A stretch of 64,000 bases of DNA from a virus: positions 108,365-172,364 of the IMG/VR virus record IMGVR_UViG_3300047558_000077; one strand, 5' to 3'. Below the pieces are notes generated by a model. That model was not told the DNA's origin and did no database searches. It worked only from the letters and a program-made list of their open reading frames with translations. A program made the position numbers and the translations under genes. Positions 5,890-19,631 of the stretch are shown in pieces (within the stretch, counting starts at the first letter, position 1; every line of letters starts with the position of its first letter).

Positions 5890-6042
5890 ATGGCTAATGT
5901 GAAGACCTATAACCTTTCTATTCATCTGAAAGGTAATCGCACTCTCACTTTTCGTGGCATTTCTCGTGTAGCGGTTGAACGATATCGCAAGCACTATGAA
6001 ATCCAAATGGACTATATTTCCGCATCGGTGGAGAATCGTTAA
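5890..6042 (+). CDS. Small hypothetical protein (50 aa)
   Basis: MANVKTYNLSIHLKGNRTLTFRGISRVAVERYRKHYEIQMDYISASVENR; GGAG RBS; stop overlaps the rtcB ATG. Confidence 0.55.
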   Translation: MANVKTYNLSIHLKGNRTLTFRGISRVAVERYRKHYEIQMDYISASVENR

Positions 6043-7265
6043 TGTCTTATCAGTTCGTGCAAGGTCGTGGTGCGCCGCTCAAGATGTGGTGCGAAGGTGT
6101 TGAGGTCGAGGACGATGCTCGTACCCAGTTAGAGAACATAGCGTCCTTGCCGTTCGTGTATAAGCATGTGGCGGTGATGCCGGATGTTCACTTGGGTAAG
6201 GGTGCTACGGTTGGTTCGGTTATCGCTACCAAGGGTGCGGTAGTTCCGGCGGCTGTTGGTGTTGATATCGGTTGCGGTATGATGGCAGTTCGGTTGTCTC
6301 TAAAGGCAAACGACTTGCCGGACAATCTTGCTTCGCTTCGTTCTCATATCGAGTCCGTAGTGCCGCATGGTCGCACGGACAACGGCGGTAAGAACGACAA
6401 GGGAACGTGGCTTGACCGCATTCCGAACTCGGCTTCAAATGCTTGGTTGTCTTTGTGTAGCCGTTATGATGCTATAGTGGCAAAGCACCCGAAGATTGCG
6501 TCTCATAAGACTTTTGAGTTTATGGGCACTCTCGGCACGGGCAACCACTTTATCGAGTTGTGTCTGGACGAGGACGATTATGTGTGGGTAATGCTACACT
6601 CTGGTTCTCGTGGTGTAGGTAACAAGATCGGTCAGTATTTCATCGAGGCTGCTCGCAAGGAGATGGAGCGATATCATATCCTGCCGTATCTGCCGGATAA
6701 GGACTTGTCCTATTTGGTAGAGCATACCACGCTATTCGATGATTATGTTGAAGCAGTATCCTGGGCACAGGAGTTTGCTGCTCTCAACCGTCAGGTGATG
6801 ATGGATGCGGTGCTTGATGTTCTGCGTCAGCGTTTGCCGTCGTTTGTCGTGTCTGATGAAAAGGCTGTGAACTGCCACCACAACTATATCTCCAAGGAAA
6901 ACCACTTTGGAGAAAATGTGTTTGTGACCCGTAAGGGTGCGGTTCGTGCCCGTGAAGGCGATCTTGGTATCATACCGGGTTCTATGGGCACGGGTTCGTT
7001 TATCGTTCGTGGTCTTGGTAATCAGGAGTCGTTTTGTTCGTGTTCTCATGGTGCTGGTCGTCGTATGTCCCGCAATGCGGCTCGTAAGGCTATCACGCTA
7101 GATGATCATATCAAGGCGACCGAGGGTATTGAGTGCCGTAAGGACGTAGATGTGATTGACGAATCGCCGGCTGCTTACAAGGATATCGGTGCGGTCATGG
7201 CTGCACAGGATGACCTTGTTGAGATTGTCCACCGATTGCGTCAGGTTCTAAACGTAAAGGGATAA
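6042..7265 (+). CDS. rtcB: RtcB 3'-phosphate/5'-OH RNA ligase
   Basis: MPDVHLGKGATVG, GVDIGCG, GTLGTGNHFIE, HSGSRG, CHHN, SHGAGR, DESPAAYK motifs. Confidence 0.97.
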   Translation: MSYQFVQGRGAPLKMWCEGVEVEDDARTQLENIASLPFVYKHVAVMPDVHLGKGATVGSVIATKGAVVPAAVGVDIGCGMMAVRLSLKANDLPDNLASLRSHIESVVPHGRTDNGGKNDKGTWLDRIPNSASNAWLSLCSRYDAIVAKHPKIASHKTFEFMGTLGTGNHFIELCLDEDDYVWVMLHSGSRGVGNKIGQYFIEAARKEMERYHILPYLPDKDLSYLVEHTTLFDDYVEAVSWAQEFAALNRQVMMDAVLDVLRQRLPSFVVSDEKAVNCHHNYISKENHFGENVFVTRKGAVRAREGDLGIIPGSMGTGSFIVRGLGNQESFCSCSHGAGRRMSRNAARKAITLDDHIKATEGIECRKDVDVIDESPAAYKDIGAVMAAQDDLVEIVHRLRQVLNVKG

Positions 7266-7267
7266 AA

Positions 7268-7384
7268 ATGAAACGCAAGAATGTAAACCCAGTGGCTAAG
7301 GCGTTACGTCTTGGTGTATGTAAACCTAAGGTGATTGTAGACAGGAAAACTGTATACAATCGCAAAAGGCTACCAAAACTATAG
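7268..7384 (+). CDS. ArfA-like small basic peptide (38 aa)
   Basis: MKRKNVNPVAKALRLGVCKPKVIVDRKTVYNRKRLPKL; aligns by eye to the ArfA core N-x5-L-x5-[KR]-x-[KR]-V-x4-K...Y-x-RK; not in the ORF track. Confidence 0.6.
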   Translation: MKRKNVNPVAKALRLGVCKPKVIVDRKTVYNRKRLPKL

Positions 7385-7540
7385 ACTATAGTGACTTGGT
7401 GTTCTAATATCTCAAAAATACCCCTTCAAGGGCAACCATGCCCTGTCCGAAAAATCGATAGGAAGCACCAGGAGACTTTTCACGGTCTTCTGGTGCTATA
7501 GTCTCTTCCAGACCTCAAAACTCTCCTGGCGTCTCCTGGA
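7383..7540. other. Structured intergenic region (candidate ncRNA / processing element)
   Basis: Hairpins AGGGCA/TGCCCT (7429-7444) and AGCACCAGGAGAC/GTCTTCTGGTGCT (7464-7497); outer AGACTATAG/CTATAGTCT; alternative partner GTCTCCTGG at 7531-7539. Confidence 0.45.
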
Positions 7541-7543
7541 GAT

Positions 7544-7643
7544 TGTAAACAGTCTACCAACTCTATAGACTTTAGGTGCGACATCCTGTCGCACCTGTTG
7601 ACATACGATTTCTCTTGCTTCTTCCGTTCCGTTGTGCTACTAT
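7544..7643 (+). promoter_or_regulatory. Repeated early-promoter module, copy 3
   Basis: TGTAAACAGTCTAC; TGCGACA-TCC-TGTCGCA(7577-7593); TGTTGACA(7596-7603); TTGCTT(7615)-17-TACTAT. Confidence 0.8.
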
Positions 7644-7669
7644 ATCCGCATAATGTTGAAAGGAACAAA

Positions 7670-8311
7670 ATGATCAATCTCTCCAAGGCCTCTAAAATGC
7701 CTGCTAAGTCCTGGTCGCTTCAAGCGGGTTCGACCTGTCCGGGTTCTATCGATCCCGTTACCAAGCAGCCGCTTCCTGTTTGTGCGGGTTGTTATGCAAA
7801 AGATGGCATGTATAATATGCCAAACGTCAAGTCGGTTCGTGACGCTAATCGAGAAGATTGGAAGCGTGCCGAATGGGTCGATGAAATGGTTGCTTTGCTT
7901 AAAAAGCAAAAGTATTTCCGTTGGTTCGACTCGGGAGACGTTTATCATCCGGCTCTTGCTTTCAAAATCTTTCTGGTTATGCAAAAGACTCCGCATGTGA
8001 AGCATTGGCTTCCTACCAAGTCTTATAACATTCCGAAGATCCGTGCTATTCTTGATCAGATGAAAATGCTTCCGAATGCATCTGTTCGATATTCGTCTCC
8101 GTCTATTACGGGTGAATTTAATAGCGAACATGGCTCCACTGTTATCGCATATGCCGATGATGAAACGACCGCTACGGTCTGTGGTGCTTATTCTCGGAAT
8201 GGCAAGTGTGGCGATTGCCGTGCTTGCTGGGATACGAATGTTAAGGTTGTCGCTTATCCCGCACATGGTCGTCGTATGATGTCCAAAGTCCGTAAAATGA
8301 AAGCAGCCTAA
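7670..8311 (+). CDS. GP88-like (radical-SAM-like) Fe-S protein
   Basis: TCPGS..VCAGCYA, FRWFDSGD, HWLPTK, C-terminal C..CGDCRACW; AAGGA RBS before ATG 7670. Confidence 0.7.
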   Translation: MINLSKASKMPAKSWSLQAGSTCPGSIDPVTKQPLPVCAGCYAKDGMYNMPNVKSVRDANREDWKRAEWVDEMVALLKKQKYFRWFDSGDVYHPALAFKIFLVMQKTPHVKHWLPTKSYNIPKIRAILDQMKMLPNASVRYSSPSITGEFNSEHGSTVIAYADDETTATVCGAYSRNGKCGDCRACWDTNVKVVAYPAHGRRMMSKVRKMKAA

Positions 8312-8322
8312 GGAGGATTAAT

Positions 8323-8529
8323 ATGTCACGCATATCTGATCTGATTATTCAAGCAGAGAACCTCGTTATTGAGGCTATGGGCGTTTCGGGTATTATGACC
8401 GACCGTGATGTTCTCGAATATGTAAATGACCGTATGCCTATTTACGTCGATATGCATTTTGTCGAGAGTGTCCTTGACAAGTATTTCGGCGATGACTGGT
8501 ATGGCGGCGATATTCGCTCTTATAATTGA
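8323..8529 (+). CDS. Hypothetical protein
   Basis: AGGAGG RBS. Confidence 0.65.
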   Translation: MSRISDLIIQAENLVIEAMGVSGIMTDRDVLEYVNDRMPIYVDMHFVESVLDKYFGDDWYGGDIRSYN

Positions 8530-8538
8530 GGTGATGAA

Positions 8539-8781
8539 ATGTCGTGTAGATGGCATTCATTCTATGAAAATGGACGCCTAAGGATTTATCTTTCCCATGA
8601 ATCGCTCGAAGACCTGGAAAATAGTCTTTGTCAAGGTTTCTTTGTAGCATACGGCACTTCGCCGAATGGCGGTCCGTCAGATTGTATCTGGTATGTGCCT
8701 AACACCATAATGCAACAGGAAGGAATTTTCGCTTATGAAAACCCGAGAATATACCAACAAGATTATCGAAATGGTCGATGA
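8539..8781 (+). CDS. Hypothetical protein
   Basis: GAGGTG RBS; operon context. Confidence 0.45.
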   Translation: MSCRWHSFYENGRLRIYLSHESLEDLENSLCQGFFVAYGTSPNGGPSDCIWYVPNTIMQQEGIFAYENPRIYQQDYRNGR

Positions 8782-8953
8782 AGGTCTAATCGATCGGGAT
8801 ATTCTTATTCGTGATCTTCTAAACTATATGTCCGAGTCCGATGTTGAAAACTTTTATGACCAGTATTATGGTTATGAGGACGAGGACGATGAATTGGATG
8901 ATGGTCAGCCGTCGGAAATGGACGAATGGCACGACTATGACCCAGGATGCTGA
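8735..8953 (+). CDS. Acidic hypothetical protein (DGQPSE..EWHDYDP.C tail)
   Basis: Very acidic C-terminus typical of small phage early proteins. Confidence 0.65.
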   Translation: MKTREYTNKIIEMVDEGLIDRDILIRDLLNYMSESDVENFYDQYYGYEDEDDELDDGQPSEMDEWHDYDPGC

Positions 8954-8954
8954 C

Positions 8955-9068
8955 TGTAAACGAGAGAATGTCAACAGTCTACCGACTTTATAGAATATGG
9001 ATGCGTCACCCTGTCGCACCTGTTGACATACCTTTTCGCTTGCAATCTGTCCTTACTTGTGTTATCCT
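8955..9068 (+). promoter_or_regulatory. Repeated early-promoter module, copy 4
   Basis: TGTAAAC..TGTCAACAGTCTAC; TGCGTCA-CCC-TGTCGCA(9002-9018); TGTTGACA(9021-9028); TTGCAA(9040)-17-TATCCT(9063). Confidence 0.8.
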
Positions 9069-9098
9069 TAGTCATCAAATCGAAACAGGAGTTTTAAT

Positions 9099-9641
9099 AT
9101 GCCCCGTACCGCTCAATCTAATGGTATCAAACCCTACCTGCGTGCCCTTGCCGTTATCAAGCTCGGTGTTCCTGTGACCCCGACCGAGATTAACGAGCAT
9201 GTTGGCACCGGTGACTATGCTGCAAAGTATATCTCTTTTCTTCGCAATCGCAACGGCTTCGAGTTTACCATTCAGAAAGATGGTCGCAAGGTCGTTTCTT
9301 ATACCTTGATCAAGGAACCGGCTGATGCCGAGGCCTTGCGTAATCTAATGCCAAAGGCCGCTAAGTCTAAGGCGCCTAAGGTTGCTAAGACTTCTGCTCC
9401 CAAGGTCGTGGTTGCTCCTGCTCCTAAGGCTGCTAAGACTAAAGCGCCTAAGAAGGTTGCGGCTAAGAAGTCTGTTGCCGATATCAAGGCAGCTAATCTT
9501 GCTAAACTCAAGGCAGTTGGTCAGCGTTTCAAGGCTGATCAGGTTCAGGTTCTGACCGAAGCGCCTGCGTCCACTTCGTTTAGCATTGACAACGACTGGG
9601 ACTCGGTCGAAGGTCTTGACCTCAAGAACCTCATTGGATAA
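9099..9641 (+). CDS. Putative winged-helix DNA-binding protein with histone H1-like K/A/P tail
   Basis: N-terminal VTPTEI...YISFLRN.GFEF...VVSYTL (wHTH-like); KAPKVAK/KAAKTKAPKK repeats. Confidence 0.6.
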   Translation: MPRTAQSNGIKPYLRALAVIKLGVPVTPTEINEHVGTGDYAAKYISFLRNRNGFEFTIQKDGRKVVSYTLIKEPADAEALRNLMPKAAKSKAPKVAKTSAPKVVVAPAPKAAKTKAPKKVAAKKSVADIKAANLAKLKAVGQRFKADQVQVLTEAPASTSFSIDNDWDSVEGLDLKNLIG

Positions 9642-9652
9642 GGAGTGCTAAT

Positions 9653-9907
9653 ATGGCATATGTTCGTATTGATATGGACGACATTGAAACAGAGGATTTG
9701 GTCGAGGAACTGGAGGATCGTGGTTATACTATGATTGAGCCTGGTGGTGAACATGAAAATGTAGAAACAATCAAGCGCATGGAAGATGATATCTATAATC
9801 TCTATCGTGATTATGTTCAATGGGCAGGTAATAAGTCGTCTTGTAGTTCCTTCGAGAGTGCCATAAAACGCTTCTTTGAGAAGCATACTAATAAGATTGT
9901 ATCCTAA
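9653..9907 (+). CDS. Hypothetical protein (EDLVEELEDRGY motif)
   Basis: AAGGAG RBS. Confidence 0.65.
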   Translation: MAYVRIDMDDIETEDLVEELEDRGYTMIEPGGEHENVETIKRMEDDIYNLYRDYVQWAGNKSSCSSFESAIKRFFEKHTNKIVS

Positions 9908-9917
9908 GGAGAAACAA

Positions 9918-10280
9918 ATGGCCCGTCTCAAAATCAAATATAAAAATACTCTGGTTTTGCGTGGGTCAAATGTTTATGTGCCTGATCATAGCGTATATGT
10001 CGGTCGTGTCGTAAAGCCACGGCCGTCTTGGCTTTCCAAAGACGAATTTCTTTTCACCACTGGTGATATTGACTCGCCTGTCCGTATTCTTGATAAGAAA
10101 AACATTATTGAGGCGTGGGTGTCACATAAGAATGTTGATGATGGTGTGACACTTGTTCCTGGTGAAAAGCGACCGTATGTTGTGACTCGTGGTCCATTCG
10201 GTCGTTATTCGTGTAACTGTACCGCATATGGCTATCGGCAGCGGTGTTCTCATATTGATGGAGTGAAACATGGGTCTTGA
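9918..10280 (+). CDS. SWIM-type zinc-finger protein
   Basis: C-terminal CNCTAYGYRQRCSH (CxCxnCxH); AAGGAG RBS before ATG 9918. Confidence 0.7.
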   Translation: MARLKIKYKNTLVLRGSNVYVPDHSVYVGRVVKPRPSWLSKDEFLFTTGDIDSPVRILDKKNIIEAWVSHKNVDDGVTLVPGEKRPYVVTRGPFGRYSCNCTAYGYRQRCSHIDGVKHGS

Positions 10281-10701
10281 TATGAATCTTTATGGTGAAA
10301 AGATTATTTGTGGTTCGGAGGCGGCCCCGGAGGCAGCCCTCGAAGATGGATTTCCTCTTTCATCTAAAATTCTTGACTTGGGATATTGGCGTAAACATCC
10401 CAATCTTCATGGTTACATCGTTGATACTTTCGCTGATGGTAAAGACGAATGCCAGCGTATTTATTTGGACGAGAATGAACTCCAAAAGATCATAGAAGCA
10501 TTAGAAAACGATGCTATCTATGATGAACCTGTTACGGGTTTCTTCTTCGGCAAATCTTACTTTCCTGGTGAGAAAGATGAATATAGTTCTTATGAAGAAC
10601 AGAAGTCCCGTGATATAGATATCTTCACAAAGGCACTCAATTGGATTCAGAATAATCCTTCTAAAGAGTGGCGAAATCTGTATTATCAGGCATCGTGGTG
10701 A
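10270..10701 (+). CDS. Conserved phage protein (MGLD...YWRK...GFFFG...YQASW family)
   Basis: Characteristic motifs of a widespread phage family of unknown function. Confidence 0.7.
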   Translation: MGLDMNLYGEKIICGSEAAPEAALEDGFPLSSKILDLGYWRKHPNLHGYIVDTFADGKDECQRIYLDENELQKIIEALENDAIYDEPVTGFFFGKSYFPGEKDEYSSYEEQKSRDIDIFTKALNWIQNNPSKEWRNLYYQASW

Positions 10702-10705
10702 TAAT

Positions 10706-10834
10706 ATGTGGGACATTCACTGGATATGGAACCCTCGACATTGGGCGGTTCATAAAGTAACAAGATTCAATGGCGGCCGCCCCTATGAAAGTTATAGATT
10801 CGGTCCACTGTTTATCAGGAGATTTTGGAAATGA
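10706..10834 (+). CDS. Small Trp/Arg-rich peptide (42 aa)
   Basis: MWDIHWIWNPRHWAVHKVTRFNGGRPYESYRFGPLFIRRFWK fills the gap with overlapping stop/start. Confidence 0.45.
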   Translation: MWDIHWIWNPRHWAVHKVTRFNGGRPYESYRFGPLFIRRFWK

Positions 10835-11244
10835 AAATACACAATGAAAGTTCCTGGCTAAACTGTGATGGCATCGCCATGGCAGAAAAGATGTATAATG
10901 CCAAGTATGTGTTCGAGTCCTGCTTAAAGACGAAAGATGGTGGTTGGTGTAATATGCCAGTCGCTATCTTCTATACTGAAAAGGCCCACCCAGAAGGTTC
11001 AAACTATTTTGGATTGTATCGCACAGACTATGGTGATCTAATGATCACAGACGGTATCTCTGCTACCGAACCATTTGATGCTTTACAGGTAGGTGAAGAT
11101 ATTATCTATTCTCGTTATCGTCACGATTGTCGTGAGTTTAATGGTGCGATGGTTGATGGTGGTCGAGATTACTTCAAGACCAATATGAAGGGCACTCCTG
11201 TCAAACTACAGGTTGTTGGTGATCATTTGGAGGTGGTGAAATGA
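10831..11244 (+). CDS. Conserved phage protein (IYSRYRHD...VDGG motif)
   Basis: AGGAG RBS before ATG 10831. Confidence 0.65.
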   Translation: MKIHNESSWLNCDGIAMAEKMYNAKYVFESCLKTKDGGWCNMPVAIFYTEKAHPEGSNYFGLYRTDYGDLMITDGISATEPFDALQVGEDIIYSRYRHDCREFNGAMVDGGRDYFKTNMKGTPVKLQVVGDHLEVVK

Positions 11245-11459
11245 AGATTAAACATTCAGTTGAATTAGACTTCGATTCTGTTAGTGAATTGATTCGTAAA
11301 AGTCTAATGTATGATTATGAAATCAATAGCAAACCTGATAAATTTGATTGTTCAGATGATGTTATTGAACCGGATCATGAGTTTCTAAGATGTTTAGAAG
11401 TTGTGATTCAGTATTATTGTAGTTGTTCTCAGTTCGAAGAATGGAAAAAGAATAGATAA
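11241..11459 (+). CDS. Hypothetical protein
   Basis: GGAGG RBS; overlapping start. Confidence 0.6.
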   Translation: MKIKHSVELDFDSVSELIRKSLMYDYEINSKPDKFDCSDDVIEPDHEFLRCLEVVIQYYCSCSQFEEWKKNR

Positions 11460-11542
11460 CCGATTATCATGGAGCTCCTGAATCATCGCTAATTATTTGG
11501 CTTCATGATGCCCATGATAGAAACCCTTTAAGGAGAAAGTAA

Positions 11543-11686
11543 ATGAAACTGGCATGGCTTTGCTATCATCTAATAGAGAACACTGGAAAACTGGAATACG
11601 ATAAACCTGAAATTCTGTTCTATGAACCAGACCGTTATCTTTATGATAAGGTTGTTCCAATCGTATATGCGGAGATTGTAGAATGA
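11543..11686 (+). CDS. Small hypothetical protein (47 aa)
   Basis: MKLAWLCYHLIENTGKLEYDKPEILFYEPDRYLYDKVVPIVYAEIVE; AAGGAG RBS; stop overlaps the ligase ATG. Confidence 0.55.
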   Translation: MKLAWLCYHLIENTGKLEYDKPEILFYEPDRYLYDKVVPIVYAEIVE

Positions 11687-12813
11687 AAACCACCCAGAAA
11701 CTTTACAAGATTGACTCCAACGGTAATGCTCGTGTCTGGTGGATGGAGTATGACAATACCAAGTATCGCACTCATTCAGGTATCGATGGTGGCAAGATTG
11801 TAGTTTCTGGTTGGAAGTATCCAGAGGCCAAGAATGTCGGTCGTGCTAATGAAACATCTGTGAAGGAGCAGGTTGAGTTAGAGGTTATTTCTCAACTCAC
11901 TAAAAAGTCCGCACAAGGCAAGTATCACGCCAGCAAGAATACTGCCGCTAAGGGTGCCAAGTTCTATGAATGTATGCTGGCATCAAAGTATGATCCCAAG
12001 AAGCATAAGAACTTTCCCTATTACTCGCAGCCTAAACTAGATGGCATTCGCTGTCTGGTTTCAAAGGACGGTATGCAGTCTCGCAATGGCAAGCCTATTC
12101 TTTCTTGCCCGCATATTCTTGAGGCGCTTGAACCGTTCTTTGACAAGTATCCTGATGTTGTGCTTGACGGTGAACTGTATAATCACGACCTGAAAAACGA
12201 CTTTGAAAAGATTGTGTCTCTTGTTCGCAAGACTAAGCCAACCACCCACGATTATATCGAGGCATCTAAACTGGTTCAGTATCATATCTATGACTGTATG
12301 ACAGACTATGATTTTGCTGGTCGTAATCAGATGATAGCGGATATATTCGAGACATTTGATTCAAAGTATAGAAAAGAGAACGATCCTATTGGTAGAGTGA
12401 ATACTACTGTAGTTGAAAATGAACACGACATTGAAACAATGCTTGGTCATTATCTTGAACAAGGTTACGAAGGTCAAATGCTTCGTGTTCCTAACTCTCT
12501 GTATGAAGGCAAGCGTTCAAAAGGACTTATCAAGCATAAAGAGTTTGAGGATGACGAGTTTGAAATCGTCTCTATTGAAGAAGGCAAAGGTAACTGGGCA
12601 GGTGCTGCCAAGCGTGTTGAAATCCGTTTGAAAGACGGAACGACACAGTTTTCGGGAGTGCGTGGCTCGTTTGACTTTCTGAAAGAACTGCTGTATAATG
12701 CTAATGATTATATCGGTACGGATGTTACCGTGAGATATCAGAACAAAACGGACGATAACAAACTCCGTTTCCCTGTGATCGTTACATTCTGGAAAGGTAA
12801 GCGTGATGTCTAA
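11683..12813 (+). CDS. ATP-dependent DNA ligase
   Basis: Motif I QPKLDGIRC, LDGELY, YHIYD, EGQMLR, KHK, LRFPV. Confidence 0.95.
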   Translation: MKTTQKLYKIDSNGNARVWWMEYDNTKYRTHSGIDGGKIVVSGWKYPEAKNVGRANETSVKEQVELEVISQLTKKSAQGKYHASKNTAAKGAKFYECMLASKYDPKKHKNFPYYSQPKLDGIRCLVSKDGMQSRNGKPILSCPHILEALEPFFDKYPDVVLDGELYNHDLKNDFEKIVSLVRKTKPTTHDYIEASKLVQYHIYDCMTDYDFAGRNQMIADIFETFDSKYRKENDPIGRVNTTVVENEHDIETMLGHYLEQGYEGQMLRVPNSLYEGKRSKGLIKHKEFEDDEFEIVSIEEGKGNWAGAAKRVEIRLKDGTTQFSGVRGSFDFLKELLYNANDYIGTDVTVRYQNKTDDNKLRFPVIVTFWKGKRDV

Positions 12814-13009
12814 GGACATTGTTTACTACAAACTGGTAAAAGAAACCATTCCTCATAATCCTAATGCTTTTGTAACTGCTGCTGTTTGGTCGTGTGTCCT
12901 TTGTGACGAAACTATTAGCGGTCACAGTGGACCTGGTTCTGGTGAGATTTGTGTGCAATGTGCCGTTGATATTCGCTCAAATAAACTAAAATATAAGCGT
13001 GACCTATGA
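12806..13009 (+). CDS. Small zinc-binding protein
   Basis: CVLC...CVQC. Confidence 0.55.
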   Translation: MSKDIVYYKLVKETIPHNPNAFVTAAVWSCVLCDETISGHSGPGSGEICVQCAVDIRSNKLKYKRDL

Positions 13010-13227
13010 CCGAGATTAGAAAGATTGACATTGAACTGGATGAACGTGTGGAGACTGGTCCTCTCCAGTTTGGTGATGACTGGCCCGGCTTATTTATTCG
13101 TGGTGATAATGCCGCTTACTATGCCATGGTGCTTCGTTACCATCTTGATGGTGGTCGTGATGATATCTTTGGTAAAATGGCACTAGAAAGACTCTATAAA
13201 GACCTATCAGGGTGTATAGTGAAATGA
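13006..13227 (+). CDS. Hypothetical protein (RVETGP.QFGDDWPG.FIRGDNA motif)
   Basis: ORF in operon with overlapping start/stop. Confidence 0.65.
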   Translation: MTEIRKIDIELDERVETGPLQFGDDWPGLFIRGDNAAYYAMVLRYHLDGGRDDIFGKMALERLYKDLSGCIVK

Positions 13228-13388
13228 TTACCGACTATATGAGACAGATAGCATATAACGAAGGATATAAAGCATACATCGATAACTTTGATTGTAGGGA
13301 TAATCCATATGAAGGTAATAGTGATGAGTTATATTATATGTGGGATGATGGTTGGTGGGATGCTTTTTACGAGGATGAAGCACGATGA
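13224..13388 (+). CDS. RMF/CrpP-like small protein (54 aa)
   Basis: AYNEGYKA...NPY...WDDGWWDA resembles RMF A-x3-GY-x-A...PY...W-x2-GW-x2-A; not in the ORF track. Confidence 0.6.
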   Translation: MITDYMRQIAYNEGYKAYIDNFDCRDNPYEGNSDELYYMWDDGWWDAFYEDEAR

Positions 13389-13927
13389 ACATTTTCTATA
13401 TCCATACTGACCCTAAAATGTGTGCCGAGTGGGCAGTGGATAGCCATTGTGTAAAAATGATTTTAGAGGCGAGCCAGTTGCTGTCTACCGCACATCGTTT
13501 GCTCGACGGTGTAGAGTATACCGATAAGACTAAGACTGGTCGCAATGTAAAGCGTTGGCGTTTGCCTGATTCCAGAGAAACTGTATTATACTCCGCAACT
13601 CATGTGTCGCACCCATCGGCTGTGTGGGCTCGGGAGAATGCCCGCAACTATGGATGGCTATGGTGTTATCTAGATGAACATTGTAAAGAATACACCTATC
13701 GTTATGGTAAGATTCACAAGGTTGAAGAAAGTGGTCTAAAAGGCACACTTGCTCTTACACCGAATAACATTCCTAATAAAGACTTTACACAACCTCCAAG
13801 TGCGATGGATACTAAATACATCATATCAGAAGATGCGGTAAAGAACTATCGCAACTACTACAAGGTTGGCAAAGCGCATCTTCACAAGTGGCGCAATCGA
13901 CAGCCACCAGCATGGATTATGGAGTGA
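13385..13927 (+). CDS. Pyrimidine-dimer DNA glycosylase / endonuclease V-like protein
   Basis: MNIF...HCVKMILEASQLLSTAH, HPSAVWAR, EYTYRYGKIH, YRNYY motifs. Confidence 0.65.
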   Translation: MNIFYIHTDPKMCAEWAVDSHCVKMILEASQLLSTAHRLLDGVEYTDKTKTGRNVKRWRLPDSRETVLYSATHVSHPSAVWARENARNYGWLWCYLDEHCKEYTYRYGKIHKVEESGLKGTLALTPNNIPNKDFTQPPSAMDTKYIISEDAVKNYRNYYKVGKAHLHKWRNRQPPAWIME

Positions 13928-13929
13928 CA

Positions 13930-14121
13930 ATGCCAACATATAGTTTTCACAACAAAGAAACAGGAGAAGAGTTTGACATTTTCATGTCAATCTCCGAATT
14001 AGACAAGTATCTAGAAGACCATCCTGAGCTTGAAAAGCTATTGTCTGCACCTCATTTTTTAGGCGCTCAAATGAATGGCGGTTTGCTAAATAACAGAACA
14101 TATGATCCAAAGGGTAAGTGA
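13930..14121 (+). CDS. FmdB-like small protein (Cys-less), copy 1
   Basis: MPTYSF.NKETGE motif; GGAG RBS. Confidence 0.65.
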   Translation: MPTYSFHNKETGEEFDIFMSISELDKYLEDHPELEKLLSAPHFLGAQMNGGLLNNRTYDPKGK

Positions 14122-14385
14122 ATGCCATATTATACGTTTCGCAATAAAAAGACTAATGAAGAAATGACTGTCCAGATGACTATGGCAGAACATGATACAT
14201 ATCTAAATGACAAGCCTGATTGGGAACAGGTTATTCGTGCTGTCAACTTTGCTGATCCTGTGACCATAGGCGTCACCAAACCTCCGTCCGATTTTCAGAA
14301 GTATGTGCTTGGTCGTGTCAAAGAAAAGATGCCAGGCGCTACTGCTATTGCTAACAAGCGTTGGGACATTCCCAAGGAGATTTAG
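14122..14385 (+). CDS. FmdB-like small protein (Cys-less), copy 2
   Basis: MPYYTF.NKKTNE motif; C-terminal FQKYVLGRVK. Confidence 0.7.
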   Translation: MPYYTFRNKKTNEEMTVQMTMAEHDTYLNDKPDWEQVIRAVNFADPVTIGVTKPPSDFQKYVLGRVKEKMPGATAIANKRWDIPKEI

Positions 14386-14416
14386 CCTGTCAGAAGATCA
14401 ACCTTCCAGAAAGTTT

Positions 14417-14453
14417 AGAGGTCGTGCCCGTAAAAAGGCATCGACCTCTTTTT
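14417..14453 (+). terminator. Intrinsic terminator
   Basis: AGAGGTCG-TGCC...GGCA-T-CGACCTCT followed by a T-run. Confidence 0.7.
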
Positions 14454-14494
14454 GTTATGATGATGTGACTAACAATAACAAAAAAGGTCAATAT

Positions 14495-15211
14495 ATGTCA
14501 CGTAAGAATAGAAGAAATAGCAAGCAACAAAATCAAAATCAAAACTTTGAGGAGAACAATCATTTTGCTTTGCGTCATATCAATCCACTAACAGTAAACC
14601 AGCAAAGAGTGTGGGACGCATACAATAATGAATCTAATCTCATGTTGCATGGCTATGCCGGTACCGGTAAAACCTTTCTATCAATGTATCTTGCACTAAA
14701 GGAGGTCCTAACCAGCGACATATATAAGAGGGTCGTTATCATCCGCTCAGTTGTTCCATCCAGAGACATGGGTTTTCTACCAGGAACAGAGAAACAAAAA
14801 GCGGAAGTATATGAACAACCCTATCAAGAAATCTGTGACAATCTATTTGGTCGTGGAGATGGATGGCGCATATTGAAACTAAAGAGACTTGTTGAGTTTA
14901 CGACAACATCGTTTCTACGTGGCACTACGTTCAACGATTCTATTATCATTGTTGATGAGTGCAACAATATGAACTTTCAAGAGATTGATACAGTTATGAC
15001 TCGTATTGGTAATAACTCTCGTATCATTTTCTGTGGAGACTATCGCCAGGCAGATTTACATAAACCACATGATAAAACAGGTATCAAAGAGTTGATGGCA
15101 GTTACTCGCCGTATGCCATCATTTGAGCATATTGAATTTGGTATTGAGGACATTGTCCGCTCTGGTGTGGTAAAAGAGTATATCATCCAGAAAACTGAAA
15201 TGGGACTGTGA
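14495..15211 (+). CDS. phoH: PhoH-family ATPase
   Basis: GYAGTGKT P-loop, GFLPG, FLRGTTF, IIVDECNN, GDYRQADL, DIVRSG; true start likely ATG 14495. Confidence 0.95.
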   Translation: MSRKNRRNSKQQNQNQNFEENNHFALRHINPLTVNQQRVWDAYNNESNLMLHGYAGTGKTFLSMYLALKEVLTSDIYKRVVIIRSVVPSRDMGFLPGTEKQKAEVYEQPYQEICDNLFGRGDGWRILKLKRLVEFTTTSFLRGTTFNDSIIIVDECNNMNFQEIDTVMTRIGNNSRIIFCGDYRQADLHKPHDKTGIKELMAVTRRMPSFEHIEFGIEDIVRSGVVKEYIIQKTEMGL

Positions 15212-15218
15212 CTAAATA

Positions 15219-15248
15219 GCAGGTGGGAGTGCAATGCTCCCACCTATT
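15219..15248 (+). terminator. Hairpin after phoH
   Basis: AGGTGGGAG...CTCCCACCT inverted repeat around a GCAA loop. Confidence 0.55.
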
Positions 15249-15251
15249 CAC

Positions 15252-15280
15252 TTGACAATTCAGTAAAGGTGATATATAAT
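15252..15280 (+). promoter_or_regulatory. Consensus sigma70 promoter
   Basis: TTGACA(15252)-17-TATAAT(15275). Confidence 0.8.
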
Positions 15281-15291
15281 GAACACATACC

Positions 15292-15969
15292 ATGAAAACT
15301 TTTAGACATTTATACAACGATCCGATTCTATGTGAACTGAAAAGGGAAGAATATAATGGCAAGCGATACTACATATCTCCAACAGGCAAGAGACTTCCCT
15401 CCGTTACTACCTTCTTATCCCATTTTAAAGGGGACGCCATCCTCAAGTGGCGGCAAAAAGTGGGGGAAGAAGAAGCGAATAAAATATCAGCAAGAGCAAG
15501 CCGAAGAGGTACAAAATTTCATTCTCTTATGGAATCTTATCTCGGAAATCAGGAAGGATTCCTAACTCACAAAGATGTTATGCCAGATATGCGACATTCT
15601 TTCAGATTGATGCAGCCTCTGGTTGACAGAATAGACAATATACATTATATTGAGACTATGCTTTATAGCGATGCATTAGGACTCGCTGGACAGGTAGATT
15701 GTATAGCAGAGTTCGATGGTGTTCCTTCCATTATAGATTTCAAAACATCTCTAAAACTGAAAAAAGAGGAATGGATTCTAAACTACTTTGAACAATGCAC
15801 CTGCTATTCTTTGATGTATGAGGAAATGACAGGAGTGAAGTGCAAGCAGATTGTTGTATTGATAGCAGTTGATGGCGAAGACCCGCAATGTTTTGTCAAG
15901 CAACGTAAGGACTACATTCCAGAACTAGCCAATAAGATCAAAACATTTAGACAGGAGTTTGTGTTATGA
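15292..15969 (+). CDS. PD-(D/E)XK exonuclease (T4-like phage family)
   Basis: PSVTT, RGTKFH, IE..LYS, AGQVDC, IIDFKTS, Q...Y. Confidence 0.85.
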   Translation: MKTFRHLYNDPILCELKREEYNGKRYYISPTGKRLPSVTTFLSHFKGDAILKWRQKVGEEEANKISARASRRGTKFHSLMESYLGNQEGFLTHKDVMPDMRHSFRLMQPLVDRIDNIHYIETMLYSDALGLAGQVDCIAEFDGVPSIIDFKTSLKLKKEEWILNYFEQCTCYSLMYEEMTGVKCKQIVVLIAVDGEDPQCFVKQRKDYIPELANKIKTFRQEFVL

Positions 15970-16085
15970 GAAAAGCATATCTAGCAATAGCATTGGTGTT
16001 TCTTAGTTTGGGTTTGTCTGGTTGTGTTTTGGCGACCGTCGGTAAGTGCGTTGTATGGGATGCAACTAGCCGTCCCTGTAACTGA
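15966..16085 (+). CDS. Small lipoprotein (39 aa)
   Basis: MRKAYLAIALVFLSLGLSG-C lipobox; mature CVLATVGKCVVWDATSRPCN; AGGAG RBS; not in the ORF track. Confidence 0.65.
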   Translation: MRKAYLAIALVFLSLGLSGCVLATVGKCVVWDATSRPCN

Positions 16086-16124
16086 ACCAATTATAGAAGA
16101 TTTTGAAAATCAGATACCAGAAGA

Positions 16125-17591
16125 ATGATTATCACTCGTAACTGGATACGTGACGACATACTCATATACACCGAGAAAGCCACTGGCGGTCTTCGTGTGT
16201 ATGGTAAGAAAGACATATGCGAGTTTATCAATTATTGGAAACTGAAACTACTATCACATAATGCAAAGCCTGGTGATAAATTAGGATTTACGTTTGAGAA
16301 CACCGAGATTCATTCTTATGCTCTTATGTTTGCAGCATTTGAACTTGGGTTACGTGTTGTGGTTTTACATCGACCAAGCACAGAGAAGGAATGTTTGGCA
16401 CCAAAAAGCAATGCTCATTTACCTCTAGACTTCTATGTCTATCTCACATCATACCTAAATCGTTCAACTACTGTCACGGGTGTCAATCATTATCGAAAGC
16501 ATTCTAAAGTTTGCATTAGCTATGGTCCTATGGAATGGACCGAGTTTAGTGAAGACTTTAGATCAAATGAAGAAACACCTATAACAGTCAAACCCGACGA
16601 TGTTGCTTTTTGTTGTAACAGTAGCGGTACAACCGGAGATCCTAAACTCATATCATACACACACGAGTTTCTTTACAACCTATGCACACATAACTGGCAA
16701 GACTTAGGTTATAAAGACGATGATACCATTGTGCATCTGTCTTCCCTAAATCACGGTGGAGTCATAACTTTACTATTACCGGCACTAAGAACTTGCAAGA
16801 CACACTTCTTTTATAACTACATCTTTGCAGCATCATATGATCGTCTTCTATCATTCATAGATGTTTGTCTAGATTATAATGTGTCAAAAATATTCTTTGC
16901 AAACGGTGGGGAGCTGAATACGCTCATTGATCACTTAATAGAAACCGATAATAAACTATCCAATGTTAGTGCCTACATTCTTTCGTTTATCAGTCCTAGA
17001 TGGTCAGATACTATTCGTGATCAAAGACTAAAGGAGATTGTTAGCGTTTTTGGTTGTAGTGAGATATGTGGTCCTGTCTTTATGCCTAGACTAGACAATA
17101 GCAATGTTGATGGCTTTGATCCAAAGTTACTAGGCAAGCCAATGACAGGCTTCTATGAAACAAAGATCATTAATAACAGAATACACACGAAACTAAAAGA
17201 CGGAGGAGAGTTTGTCTTTGATGATGTTGTAGAAGATAGAGTAGAAGGCGCTTATTTCATATCAAAGAATAGACTACAGAAGATCAATGATGTGGATATC
17301 AATCCACTGGACATTATAGAGATAGTAGAAAGATATGTATCACGGTATGAGTTTGAGTTATATGTGGACGAAATCTATAACGAGATATACATCATAACTT
17401 CCAATGCCAATCTTGATAGAGGGAAGATAAGACAAGACATATCTGCATTCTATCTGGACAAGATAACTCTAACCGATATCATATACGAAAAGGAACTATA
17501 TGATACTCGGATCACTCACAAAGCGGAAAGAGATAAACTATCACACATAGTTGAAAGATTCCGCTTGACATTTCAGAATAACTCTGTATAA
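16125..17591 (+). CDS. Adenylate-forming (AMP-binding, ANL superfamily) enzyme
   Basis: NSSGTTGDPK P-loop, LNHGG, FGCSE (YGxxE-like), C-terminal K. Confidence 0.75.
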   Translation: MIITRNWIRDDILIYTEKATGGLRVYGKKDICEFINYWKLKLLSHNAKPGDKLGFTFENTEIHSYALMFAAFELGLRVVVLHRPSTEKECLAPKSNAHLPLDFYVYLTSYLNRSTTVTGVNHYRKHSKVCISYGPMEWTEFSEDFRSNEETPITVKPDDVAFCCNSSGTTGDPKLISYTHEFLYNLCTHNWQDLGYKDDDTIVHLSSLNHGGVITLLLPALRTCKTHFFYNYIFAASYDRLLSFIDVCLDYNVSKIFFANGGELNTLIDHLIETDNKLSNVSAYILSFISPRWSDTIRDQRLKEIVSVFGCSEICGPVFMPRLDNSNVDGFDPKLLGKPMTGFYETKIINNRIHTKLKDGGEFVFDDVVEDRVEGAYFISKNRLQKINDVDINPLDIIEIVERYVSRYEFELYVDEIYNEIYIITSNANLDRGKIRQDISAFYLDKITLTDIIYEKELYDTRITHKAERDKLSHIVERFRLTFQNNSV

Positions 17592-17597
17592 TAAATA
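17565..17597 (+). promoter_or_regulatory. Promoter of the tmRNA gene (sigma70-like, with overlapping late-type TAAATA)
   Basis: TTGACA(17565)-16-TATAAT(17587); AATAAATA at 17590-17597. Confidence 0.7.
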
Positions 17598-17884
17598 CTA
17601 TGCCGAGGTCGTTGAGAGGAACGGCATAGACGTTTCGGACGGGAGTTCGACTCTCCCCACCTCCACCATAGGTACACATTTTGAGGTCTTGGTCGTTACC
17701 AGCATGGCAAAAACGGCGACAATGTGTATCTTTGATGGGGGTGTAACGGGTATCGACGGGCGTAGTAAGGGTTCAAGGAGACCAAAGGCAAATTGCAGGT
17801 GCAGCAAACGACAATGTACCATTTGATTACGCTCTAGCAGCATAATCATTGGGGTGGCGACTTCCCTAGAAACAGAAAAGTCGC
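17598..17884 (+). ncRNA. ssrA: Circularly permuted two-piece tmRNA; acceptor piece ~17598-17668, intervening segment 17669-17736, coding piece 17737-~17884
   Basis: T-arm GGGAG-TTCGACT-CTCCC, then CACCTCCA-CCA (ends 17668); 5' end GGGGGTG at 17737 pairs with it including the G3:U70 Ala determinant; D-loop-like GGGTATCGAC; tag ORF GCA AAC GAC AAT...GCA GCA TAA = ANDNVPFDYALAA (17804-17845); 3' hairpin GCGACTT/AAGTCGC. Confidence 0.93.
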
Positions 17885-17906
17885 ATTTTCAAAAAGGATC
17901 TATGTG

Positions 17907-18131
17907 ATGACACCGGATGATATTCAAAAGTTTAGTATGGAGATCGAGGAACTGGTCTATATGAAGGACATTCCTTATATTGATGCTGTTGTGGAATACT
18001 GTGAGATGACCGGGTTTGAAATAGAAACTGCGGCCAAATTAGTCTCCGGCGTTCTCAAATCTAAAATCAAACTCGAAGCAGAAAACCTCCACTACCTCAA
18101 AAAGTCAAACACCTCACAACTTCCTCTCTAA
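17907..18131 (+). CDS. gp33: Late transcription coactivator gp33
   Basis: FSMEIEELV...YIDAVVEYCE...LKSKIKLEAENL pattern; position before gp59. Confidence 0.9.
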   Translation: MTPDDIQKFSMEIEELVYMKDIPYIDAVVEYCEMTGFEIETAAKLVSGVLKSKIKLEAENLHYLKKSNTSQLPL

Positions 18132-18147
18132 AAGGAGAACCTATATT

Positions 18148-18996
18148 ATGTCTGAACCGCATACGATTACTAAATCGGTTTTTGACCGTGAAGAAACAAC
18201 ACACATCGCTAATGTCAAAGCAAAGTTGGAATCAGCACTATCTGGTGCTGGTGTATTTGACTGTATGCAACTCAAAGTCAGCGATGATGGAGATCGTGAA
18301 GCGATAACGCATAAACTTCAACCCGATCAGCGACACAATATTGTGATTGCCGGCGGTGTAATGGCTTCTCTTATCAGCAATGAGCATGTCAATGATATTG
18401 ATGTGTTTATACTCAATTCCAAAGAATCTTTGTTCAATTCTCTTATTCGCTTTAAAAGAGGTAAATGGAATGTTCGTTACCAACTGAATGAGGATGAAAA
18501 CTATTACAATCCTCATATCATCGCTACAGCAACAAACAAAGAATCAAAAGTTCAGTATATTCTAACGGACTTCACTAATCGACAAGATATACTAAAGGAC
18601 TTTGACTTTCTACATTGTACCTGTTCGTATCACAACGATCAGTTGTTTATCAGTCGGGAGACATATGATGCTATCGTCAAAAAGCATTTGATTTGTCAGA
18701 ACAAAAAGAAGAAGCCTAAAAAATGGCGTATAGATAAGTTTCTCGGTCGTGGTTGGTCGGATCACACTAATCCAGACTATAAACTTATCACCATTTTTGA
18801 CAAAGCAATTGAAAGGTCAATGGCCCAAAAGAGTGCGGCAATGCTTGAAAAATATGAGTGGCCAACCACCAGCATGGGCGCTGAATACAATGAAAAGGCA
18901 TGGAAAGAACTATTCGAGAAAGATAAAGAAAAGTGGAGAGTGAAGGAAGAATCTAGTCTTCCTGACTATTGGAAAAACATTGTAAGAGAATTATGA
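18148..18996 (+). CDS. Pol-beta-superfamily nucleotidyltransferase (CCA/poly(A) polymerase head-like)
   Basis: VIAGG...NDIDVF and DFDFLHC motifs; RIDKFLGRGW. Confidence 0.6.
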   Translation: MSEPHTITKSVFDREETTHIANVKAKLESALSGAGVFDCMQLKVSDDGDREAITHKLQPDQRHNIVIAGGVMASLISNEHVNDIDVFILNSKESLFNSLIRFKRGKWNVRYQLNEDENYYNPHIIATATNKESKVQYILTDFTNRQDILKDFDFLHCTCSYHNDQLFISRETYDAIVKKHLICQNKKKKPKKWRIDKFLGRGWSDHTNPDYKLITIFDKAIERSMAQKSAAMLEKYEWPTTSMGAEYNEKAWKELFEKDKEKWRVKEESSLPDYWKNIVREL

Positions 18997-19631
18997 AACA
19001 CTTTTCTGGATATGGAGCATATCTGTTATTCTTGGCCTTGAGGACACATTTCACCAAGGCCAAGTATGACTTCTTTGAAATGAACGGCAAACTCCGTGCT
19101 AACAAAGAGTCATATGAAAAACGCAGAGATAAAATGTTCTTTGTGAAGTTGGCTAAGACATACAATACAGAAGAACTAAAATACTTCTTTGTAGCCAACT
19201 TCCTAGACGACAGACATTACATAACCGACATGTTATCGGAGGAAGCACACGGAGCCTATTATGAATTTGAGAAACGAAGACAATCGCTATCCTATGTCTT
19301 CAAGAATGATATTGAAAAGTTATTTGAGAATGGGTGCCATTCTGCTTTCAAGTCTGATGATGGTGATTATCCTTTGCTTGTCGGCATGGTTCTCAGCCGA
19401 GATGTCTCTTTGGATTCTGCGGTTATTCTGAATGAGTTTGTTCCTTATGTGTCAAAATTTGATAAATATATGGACGACGATTGTATATGGCAAAAAGTAT
19501 CAAGTAAGATCAAAAAGTATAGACCATTTCTAAAGTATGAAAAAGATAAGATGAAGATCATACTGAAAGGTGTAATACATGAACAAAGAGAAAAGACAGA
19601 AGCGTTTTCAGCAAAAACAGCGACACATTGA
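18993..19631 (+). CDS. gp59: Helicase loader gp59
   Basis: YL.FLALRTHFT...YDFF..NGK...SYEKRRDK.FF.KL; KYRPFL. Confidence 0.92.
   Translation: MKHFSGYGAYLLFLALRTHFTKAKYDFFEMNGKLRANKESYEKRRDKMFFVKLAKTYNTEELKYFFVANFLDDRHYITDMLSEEAHGAYYEFEKRRQSLSYVFKNDIEKLFENGCHSAFKSDDGDYPLLVGMVLSRDVSLDSAVILNEFVPYVSKFDKYMDDDCIWQKVSSKIKKYRPFLKYEKDKMKIILKGVIHEQREKTEAFSAKTATH

Follow-up and report, generated by a model that had tools for sequence, protein, structure and literature searches.

DUF7230, a putative branch of the ArfA ribosome-rescue family, beside rtcB in a T4-like phage genome with a permuted tmRNA gene

A documented bacterial system in which ribosome rescue is combined with RNA repair is the PrfH-RtcB2 operon (PMC9304027, PMC9223846). 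An ArfA gene has been annotated in Citromicrobium phage RXM (g10; PMC8953757), and Sphingobium phage Lacusarx carries 24 tRNAs, a transfer-messenger RNA (tmRNA), rtcB and tadA, the region having already been described as "translation takeover" (PMC5648845). In ribosome-bound ArfA, order is confined to residues 1 to 46-48, and ArfA 1-40 is inactive; Q27-E30 form the contact with the release factor RF2, and the change A18T blocks RF2 activation (reviewed in PMC8012679). In phages, tmRNAs and RtcB ligases have long been annotated, with roles that are still hypothetical. We analysed a 13-kb stretch of phage DNA that contains an rtcB gene, a gene for an ArfA-like peptide directly behind it and a tmRNA gene. 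The stretch has about 35 open reading frames (ORFs) on the plus strand and is part of the window, by which we mean the last 64 kb of the 172,364-bp IMG/VR virus record IMGVR_UViG_3300047558_000077 (complete according to CheckV); unless a locus is named, positions are those of the window.

A sequence-only reading had picked out five features in this stretch, namely RtcB, the ArfA-like peptide, an RMF-like protein, a two-piece tmRNA and a nucleotidyltransferase (NTase) resembling the head of CCA-adding enzymes, and had combined them into a single kit against RNase-based host defences. Each of the five was found at the coordinates given for it. The reading that we favour, at a probability of roughly 0.6, is that these are individually mobile accessory genes, of which three plausibly maintain translation during infection and two serve otherwise, with no co-inherited system among them. 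Sequence comparison supports the assignment of RtcB, the tmRNA and the ArfA relative to families with known roles in RNA repair or ribosome rescue, so that the theme proposed earlier stands for these three genes; the single kit does not, nor do the roles assigned to the RMF-like protein and the NTase. The toolkit amounts to a recurrent theme of phage genomes and not to a system.

The ArfA-like peptide has 38 amino acids and is encoded at 7268..7384 on the plus strand. Its gene starts 2 nt past the rtcB stop, has an AAGGGA ribosome-binding site and ends with an ordinary TAG stop (7382-7384). The peptide is strongly basic (pI 11.5, with K or R at 13 of the 38 residues) and matches DUF7230 (PF23876) with 31.2 bits against a cut-off of 27, or with 29.8 bits in a six-frame search. 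DUF7230 was compared with ArfA by HHalign, the target being an alignment of E. coli ArfA and five phage ArfA genes. The probability was 85% (E 6.5e-6), 95.8% (E 6.7e-9) and 97.0% (E 1e-10), rising with the diversity of the DUF7230 alignment. Individual sequences bridge the two families. The annotated ArfA of Pseudoalteromonas phage J2-1 passes the cut-offs of both ArfA (41 bits) and DUF7230 (28.6 bits), an ORF of Roseobacter phage CRP-212 passes the ArfA hidden Markov model (HMM) with a weak match to DUF7230, and E. coli ArfA itself gives a weak DUF7230 match. A search of 1.84 billion proteins with the DUF7230 profile returned 615 cluster representatives; when the peptide of the window and the 148 best small matches to the profile were scanned (n = 149), 95 matched DUF7230 and 9 matched ArfA. 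These comparisons newly support the placement of DUF7230 as a branch of the ArfA ribosome-rescue family, with the 38-residue peptide as a short ArfA relative. The homology that had been seen by eye survives the profile-profile test (96-97%), although not as a direct match to the ArfA HMM. The bridging ORF of CRP-212 (L015:1489-1611) is nested, in a different frame, within the 3' end of CRP212_gp38, a long coding sequence annotated as hypothetical; either it is an unannotated ArfA-like gene or CRP212_gp38 is over-extended.

ArfA (YhdL, PF03889) is found in E. coli and other beta- and gammaproteobacteria, with phage copies in RXM (g10) and J2-1. Like ArfA, the peptide is small and very basic, and in the alignment it spans ArfA residues 10-47, the ribosome-ordered part. 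Three elements are conserved in it: the N-P/A-hydrophobic-A...L helix, the strand (F/C)-R/K-Q/P-K/R-V, which corresponds to the RF2 contact, and a Y-x-R-K tail; the region opposite ArfA Q27-E30 is a conserved hydrophobic/basic strand. Unlike ArfA, it has 38 rather than 55-72 residues, lacks the hydrophobic C-terminal extension and KGKGS, has no hairpin or terminator before its stop codon, and is filed by Pfam as DUF7230. The only strong hairpin lies 80 nt 3' of the peptide stop (7465..7496, plus strand), with a perfect 12-bp stem and a 7-nt loop by sequence and minimum-free-energy folding; RNAfold adds two weaker pairs, and no T-run stands behind it. This hairpin is a possible end of the rtcB-peptide transcript. 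As the stop is an ordinary TAG and the strong hairpin is found only downstream, non-stop, tmRNA-dependent control of the arfA type is not evident. An internal hairpin over codons 21-32 of the gene was rejected, its positive covariation term giving no support. The longer DUF7230 peptides of about 55 residues (L107:1602-1763 and similar viral loci) have a conserved C-terminal W-T-P-K-T-G-L-L-Q-M-L, which recalls the hydrophobic ArfA tail; the idea that their genes keep the RNase III control of arfA was dropped, as no arfA-like strong hairpin is present. At the end of the 38-residue gene, the motif CTATAGACTA, unchanged in 8 relatives, overlaps the TAG stop; copies of CTATAG(A/T)C, which resemble it, occur at about 7388, 7496 and 7564 (within window 7375-7575). 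CTATAGACTA could be a processing or regulatory site.

Relatives of the peptide were located in 51 viral loci. Among close relatives the gene shows 10 synonymous and 7-8 nonsynonymous codon differences, and the excess of synonymous changes argues for a real gene under purifying selection. No match to the peptide was obtained by tblastn against cultured phages, and a pattern scan of 185,579 species genomes confirmed no bacterial relative. In sampled Pseudomonadota genomes, DUF7230 occurs in 2 of 401 and ArfA in 36 of 401. One bacterial DUF7230 copy (L254:1480-1710, genome G181) is a 76-residue ORF flanked by a Fic-like gene and by an Mrr-like restriction gene, a neighbourhood that places it within a defence or mobile island.

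The rtcB gene (6042..7265, plus strand) is intact and encodes a 3'-phosphate/5'-OH RNA ligase of 407 amino acids. The protein matches PF01139 over its full length (428 bits, cut-off 27, model positions 1-426) and PHROG 1075, 'tRNA splicing ligase' (E 1e-150), and, aligned pairwise with E. coli RtcB, shows 59% identity over 407 residues. All motifs inspected (DIGCGM, GTGNHF, HSGSRG, NCHHNY and CSHGAGR) are identical to those of the E. coli enzyme, and the earlier identification of the gene is thereby borne out. We take the Cys of DIGCGM, the NH of GTGNHF, the H of HSGSRG, the HH of NCHHNY and the H of CSHGAGR to be the metal-binding and guanylylation residues, their roles being those of the E. 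coli and Pyrococcus enzymes. The RtcB2 subfamily ('release_rtcB', TIGR03073) is not reached (129.5 bits, cut-off 271.8), which places the phage enzyme with the housekeeping type of E. coli. No T4-type Rnl1 or Rnl2 RNA ligase was detected in the phage genome, the Rnl1 search having been run without a positive control; RtcB is therefore the only RNA ligase detected in it.

The tmRNA gene (17576..17936, plus strand) is circularly permuted and of the alpha type, as called by ARAGORN and Rfam. ARAGORN lists it as 'tmRNA*', meaning permuted, with the 3' acceptor piece first and the 5' coding piece second. Rfam matches it to RF04321 (tmRNA_permuted; 95 bits, gathering score 47) at 17607-17845 and to RF01849 (alpha_tmRNA; 56 bits, gathering score 50) at 17561-17887, so that the two-piece structure proposed from the letters holds. 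The tag is AANDNVPFDYALAA, followed by a stop, and ends in YALAA, a protease-recognition tail. The acceptor piece encodes CCA, with CCACCTCCACCA at the acceptor end. A sigma-70-type promoter (17565..17592, plus strand; TTGACA-16 nt-TATAAT, 12 of 12 consensus positions) ends 15 nt before the Rfam match. No SmpB was detected in the phage genome at E<=0.1, and the tmRNA would therefore depend on host SmpB. The gene of a 488-residue AMP-binding (adenylate-forming) enzyme (window 16125-17591) overlaps the promoter at 17565-17592 and ends 8 nt ahead of the tmRNA_permuted match; it is present in only some of the tmRNA-bearing relatives. In the related genome G001 the tmRNA (L031:16305-16967) is also permuted and spans about 660 nt, compared with about 240 nt here; it scores 62.5 bits with Rfam and was missed by ARAGORN. 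Its length points to a much larger intervening segment or an insertion.

For these three genes the following roles are suggested. RtcB would reseal RNAs with 2',3'-cyclic or 3'-phosphate and 5'-OH ends. The two-piece tmRNA, together with host SmpB, AlaRS and EF-Tu, would rescue ribosomes on stop-less mRNAs and tag the stalled peptides (…YALAA) for proteolysis. The 38-residue peptide would be a minimal ArfA homologue whose K/R-rich tail enters the empty mRNA channel and which recruits host RF2, leading to peptide release; the ribosome and RF2 steps are modelled on those of its homologue ArfA. Unlike E. coli ArfA, the peptide would be made whatever the status of the tmRNA, since its gene carries a stop codon and the peptide terminates near ArfA residue 47. 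As far as can be judged from the gene sequences, there is no sign that any of the genes counters RNase-based defence, and the freeing of ribosomes from host mRNAs degraded by the phage itself would be an equally good rationale.

The arrangement resembles PrfH-RtcB2 in that the gene of an RtcB ligase adjoins that of a (here putative) stalled-ribosome release factor. It differs in that the phage RtcB is below the TIGR03073 cut-off, the partner is an ArfA-like peptide, for which host RF2 would be needed, and the rtcB-peptide pairing is not conserved among relatives; no RF-1 domain protein was found in the phage genome. PrfH-RtcB2, the nearest rescue-and-repair module on record, is thus to be seen as an analogy and not as a match. 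The large alphaproteobacterial phages Lacusarx, Cp1R7A-A1 and XM05 share part of the gene content, with an RtcB that is 64-71% identical, a nearby alpha-type tmRNA and many tRNA genes. They are not close relatives of the present phage, in which the tRNA block is about 30 kb distant and the DUF7230-form peptide directly follows rtcB.

Whether the genes are inherited together was judged from 63 related viral loci, with the DNA ligase as the anchor; pairs were counted where both positions were covered. RtcB and DUF7230 were both present in 7 loci and both missing in 3, with RtcB alone in 2 and DUF7230 alone in 5. RtcB and the RMF-like gene occurred together in 6 loci, RtcB without the RMF-like gene in 2, the RMF-like gene without RtcB in 3, and neither in 3. 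For DUF7230 and the RMF-like gene the corresponding counts were 5 (both), 4 (DUF7230 only), 4 (RMF-like only) and 1 (neither). Larger genomes were also searched as whole records (n = 5). G001 (100% complete) has RtcB and no DUF7230, G002 (94% complete) has DUF7230 and the tmRNA and no RtcB, and G003 (82% complete) has the tmRNA only. In relatives with both genes RtcB is always directly upstream of the peptide gene; where RtcB is missing, the peptide holds its slot upstream of a GP88-like gene (L043, L045). Over about 50 related phage loci and these 5 genomes, RtcB, the DUF7230 peptide and the RMF-like gene occur in every combination of presence and absence; they therefore assort independently and are not one co-inherited system. 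The one toolkit of the sequence-only reading is not borne out by this free combination, and independent assortment among relatives is largely what was found for these three genes. The tmRNA looks near-universal in the clade.

The RMF-like protein (54 residues; 13224..13388, plus strand) starts at an ATG within an ATGA overlap with the upstream ORF. It scores 23.9 bits against Pfam RMF (PF04957; E 4e-5), which is below the cut-off of 27.9; in its family 13 of 16 members match at E<=0.01, the best at E 8.7e-8. The AlphaFold2 (AF2) model is a two-helix hairpin with a predicted local distance difference test score (pLDDT) of 96. Its top two matches in the PDB are E. coli RMF in the hibernating ribosome (template-modelling (TM) score 0.78) and Vibrio RMF (TM 0.69); with a protein of this size, the Foldseek E-values do not reach significance. 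When the family was compared with the E. coli RMF sequence alone, HHalign returned a probability of only 2.4%; we regard the Pfam HMM and the fold search as more informative. The two-helix fold and the signature G-Y/x-x-A ... (C/N)-P-Y ... W-x-x-G-W are shared with RMF (PDB 9iot chain y, 2jrm). RMF is a basic rRNA binder, whereas the phage protein is strongly acidic (pI 4.05, with 14 D/E and 4 K/R), as are all 15 distinct relatives from related loci (pI 4.1-4.4). Its charge, opposite to that of RMF, makes a part in hibernation unlikely. The likeness to RMF that had been recognised in it thus holds for the fold and not for the role: it is probably an RMF-fold protein with another function and is unlikely to bind rRNA as RMF does. 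That it is a decoy or antagonist of RMF, acting as a mimic, is speculation.

The NTase (18148..18996, plus strand) is a Pol-beta-type protein of 282 amino acids encoded between gp33 and gp59. It carries the GG...S...DxD signature (G69, G70, S74, D83, D85 and D153), and the motif is invariant in 23 homologues, including G69, G70, D83, D85 and D153. Its AF2 model has a pLDDT of 81, the C-terminal third consisting of low-confidence helices. In 59 of 59 homologues, one of them 92% identical, the precomputed Pfam assignment is Gad2 (PF26128), and the nearest Atlas clusters are 86-96% Gad2, named 'Gabija anti-defense 2'. Gad2 is a phage protein of nucleotidyltransferase fold that SPbetaL7 needs to escape Gabija (bioRxiv 10.1101/2023.05.01.538930); the family takes its name from the inhibition of Gabija, a defence directed at DNA, and not from tRNA repair. 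Like the Gad2 of this Bacillus phage, the NTase is phage-borne and has a predicted nucleotidyltransferase fold; it differs in length (282 versus about 400 residues) and has no BLAST-level similarity to cultured Bacillus phages. The NTase probably groups with the Gad2 anti-Gabija family, and both it and the RMF-fold gene probably have roles other than RNA repair or ribosome rescue.

Several observations weigh against the interpretation given so far. The peptide has no match to the ArfA HMM (PF03889) by hmmscan at E<=1, nor does a six-frame search of the genome with this HMM give one at E<=10. KGKGS is replaced in the aligned segment by D-R-K-T-V with a 3-residue gap, the first nine or so ArfA residues have no counterpart, and a K stands at the position of E. 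coli ArfA A18, the site of the inactivating A18T. The absences in related loci are drawn from fragments and from tblastn and ARAGORN, and ARAGORN overlooked at least one real tmRNA, that of G001; as its tmRNA absences are unreliable, we make no claim on tmRNA loss. RtcB beside a tmRNA recurs in other phages, which hints at more linkage than independent accessories would show: an alpha-type tmRNA lies 1.3-5 kb from rtcB in Mesorhizobium phage Cp1R7A-A1, Sphingobium phage Lacusarx and Erythrobacter phage XM05, which are unrelated and have the most similar RtcB among cultured phages, and XM05 and Pseudomonas phage pf16 have RtcB plus an ArfA gene elsewhere in the genome. The Gad2 assignment, finally, is based on the precomputed Pfam 38.1 hits of the homologues and on the names of Atlas clusters.

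The linkage just described, together with the 2-nt spacing of rtcB and the peptide gene, which look co-transcribed, and their fixed order wherever relatives have both, would suit a true counter-defence kit. RtcB, the peptide, the tmRNA and perhaps the NTase would then act jointly against anticodon nucleases, mRNA interferases, ribotoxins and Cas13, with cut tRNA and rRNA repaired and ribosomes on cut mRNAs freed, and the rtcB-peptide pair would be a phage analogue of PrfH-RtcB2. The precedent of that operon and the status of RtcB as the only RNA ligase detected are in favour. However, every combination of presence and absence of RtcB and the peptide is found among close relatives, the peptide retains its slot when RtcB is missing, the ligase is of the housekeeping type by TIGR03073 score, and an RF-like partner is absent from the genome. 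We regard such a kit as unlikely and prefer the reading of singly gained accessory genes.

Of the NTase it could be argued that it is an RNA 3'-end enzyme, for CCA repair or tailing of the tmRNA or the phage tRNAs, and not an anti-Gabija protein. Its best Foldseek matches among solved structures are the heads of class II CCA-adding enzymes (5hc9, 3h37 and 1miv; E 1-3e-4 over about 130-140 columns, the best at E 1.3e-4 over about 135), followed by FAM46/TENT5. A KDFDFLH stretch is similar by eye to motif B of CCA enzymes, PF26128 is mixed with PolyA_pol in one Atlas cluster, and the sole match in a cultured phage, a weak one, is annotated 'polyA polymerase'. The NTase gene also comes after the tmRNA in 8 related loci with an ARAGORN tmRNA, and the one ARAGORN-negative locus rescanned with Rfam (L031) again has a tmRNA before the NTase. 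This adjacency is interrupted by core gp33 and likely reflects conserved T4-type gene order: the NTase follows the tmRNA because it is an insert between the core genes gp33 and gp59. The PolyA_pol head HMM (PF01743) finds no match in the NTase at E<=1. Only about 135 of the 282 residues align to CCA-adding enzymes of about 400 residues, and the neck, body and tail domains, which hold the tRNA and select the nucleotide, are absent from the alignment. Each of the 24 phage tRNA genes already encodes CCA, as does the tmRNA; with the tRNA-holding domains lacking as well, the addition of CCA is not needed and is a less likely role. What remains of the CCA-type assignment is the fold of the head with its GG...DxD motif; the silent HMM, the Gad2 relatives and the lack of need for tRNA repair make an RNA-end function doubtful, and kinship with Gad2 is the assignment that we retain.

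The peptide might also be a ribosome-directed takeover factor or inhibitor, whose ArfA-like tail would fill the mRNA channel of host ribosomes that are vacant or stalled, or would obstruct the host's ArfA or tmRNA-SmpB, in either case with no activation of RF2. The lack of KGKGS and of the N-terminal residues, and the K in place of A18, where even A18T stops RF2 activation, make ribosome binding without RF2 activation possible, and the family is rare in cells and common in phages. Yet phage peptides that pass the ArfA HMM likewise have K or G at the A18 position, the region opposite the RF2 contact Q27-E30 is conserved, and the tmRNA carried by the same phage favours the promotion of rescue over its blocking. 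Complex prediction with E. coli RF2 and the peptide alignment (0.39, 0.00 and 0.00 in three runs) bears neither way. An inhibitor is thus improbable, and a short ArfA relative that acts in rescue is preferred. Equally improbable is a closer version of the PrfH-RtcB2 analogy, a phage 'rescue then repair' unit that outruns RNA-targeting abortive infection, in which the constitutive ArfA-like peptide, together with host RF2, would free ribosomes that nuclease damage to mRNA, tRNA or rRNA had stalled, RtcB would next reseal the cut RNAs and the tmRNA would be a second rescue arm; the adjacency of rtcB and the peptide gene suits it, and their free assortment and the RtcB subtype speak against it.

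The useful result is that DUF7230, a "family of unknown function" of basic peptides of 35-75 residues, can be placed in the ArfA family, represented here by a peptide whose gene immediately follows that of an RNA ligase, in a genome that also carries a tmRNA. Should the peptide recruit RF2, it would be a stripped-down, unregulated rescue factor supplied by phages. The minimum functional length of ArfA and the dispensability of KGKGS would then become testable, as would the idea that ribosome rescue is limiting for phage yield or works against RNA-cutting defences. Two wrong annotations are avoided if the NTase is assigned to the Gad2 family and the "RMF" is called an acidic protein with the RMF fold, which also flags a possible RMF mimic.

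The 13-kb stretch also contains, on the plus strand, genes for an ATP-dependent DNA ligase (11683-12813) and PhoH (14303-15211) and, by profile search, for a PD-(D/E)XK nuclease. The T4 gp33-like late-transcription coactivator (17904..18131, plus strand; PF16805, 72 bits) is context, outside the proposed kit, and T4 gp59 is encoded at 18969-19631 (plus strand). From this gene content, the stretch is the early/middle gene region of a T4-like phage, in which core genes (DNA ligase, PhoH, gp33 and gp59) appear interspersed with accessory genes that are gained and lost singly. By the DNA ligase (44-45% identity), the nearest cultured relatives are the T4-like Sinorhizobium phages phiN3, phiM12 and phiM7 and Caulobacter phage Cr30; megablast found no close cultured relative. 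The DNA-ligase relatives and the alpha-type tmRNA suggest that the host is probably an alphaproteobacterium. The acceptor/T-arm pattern of the tmRNA was rejected as a guide to the host, being too generic and matched in many phyla.

Apart from the one tmRNA, the phage genome has 24 tRNA genes in a single block about 30 kb upstream of the window (genome C1:75119-83779), each encoding its 3' CCA. A GP88/DUF7227-like gene (window 7598-8311) lies 3' of the peptide gene, both in this phage and in rtcB-less relatives. The TTG listed as its start falls on the -35 box of a promoter, which itself stands behind a TGCGAC-N5-GTCGCA palindrome; the true start is therefore probably further downstream.

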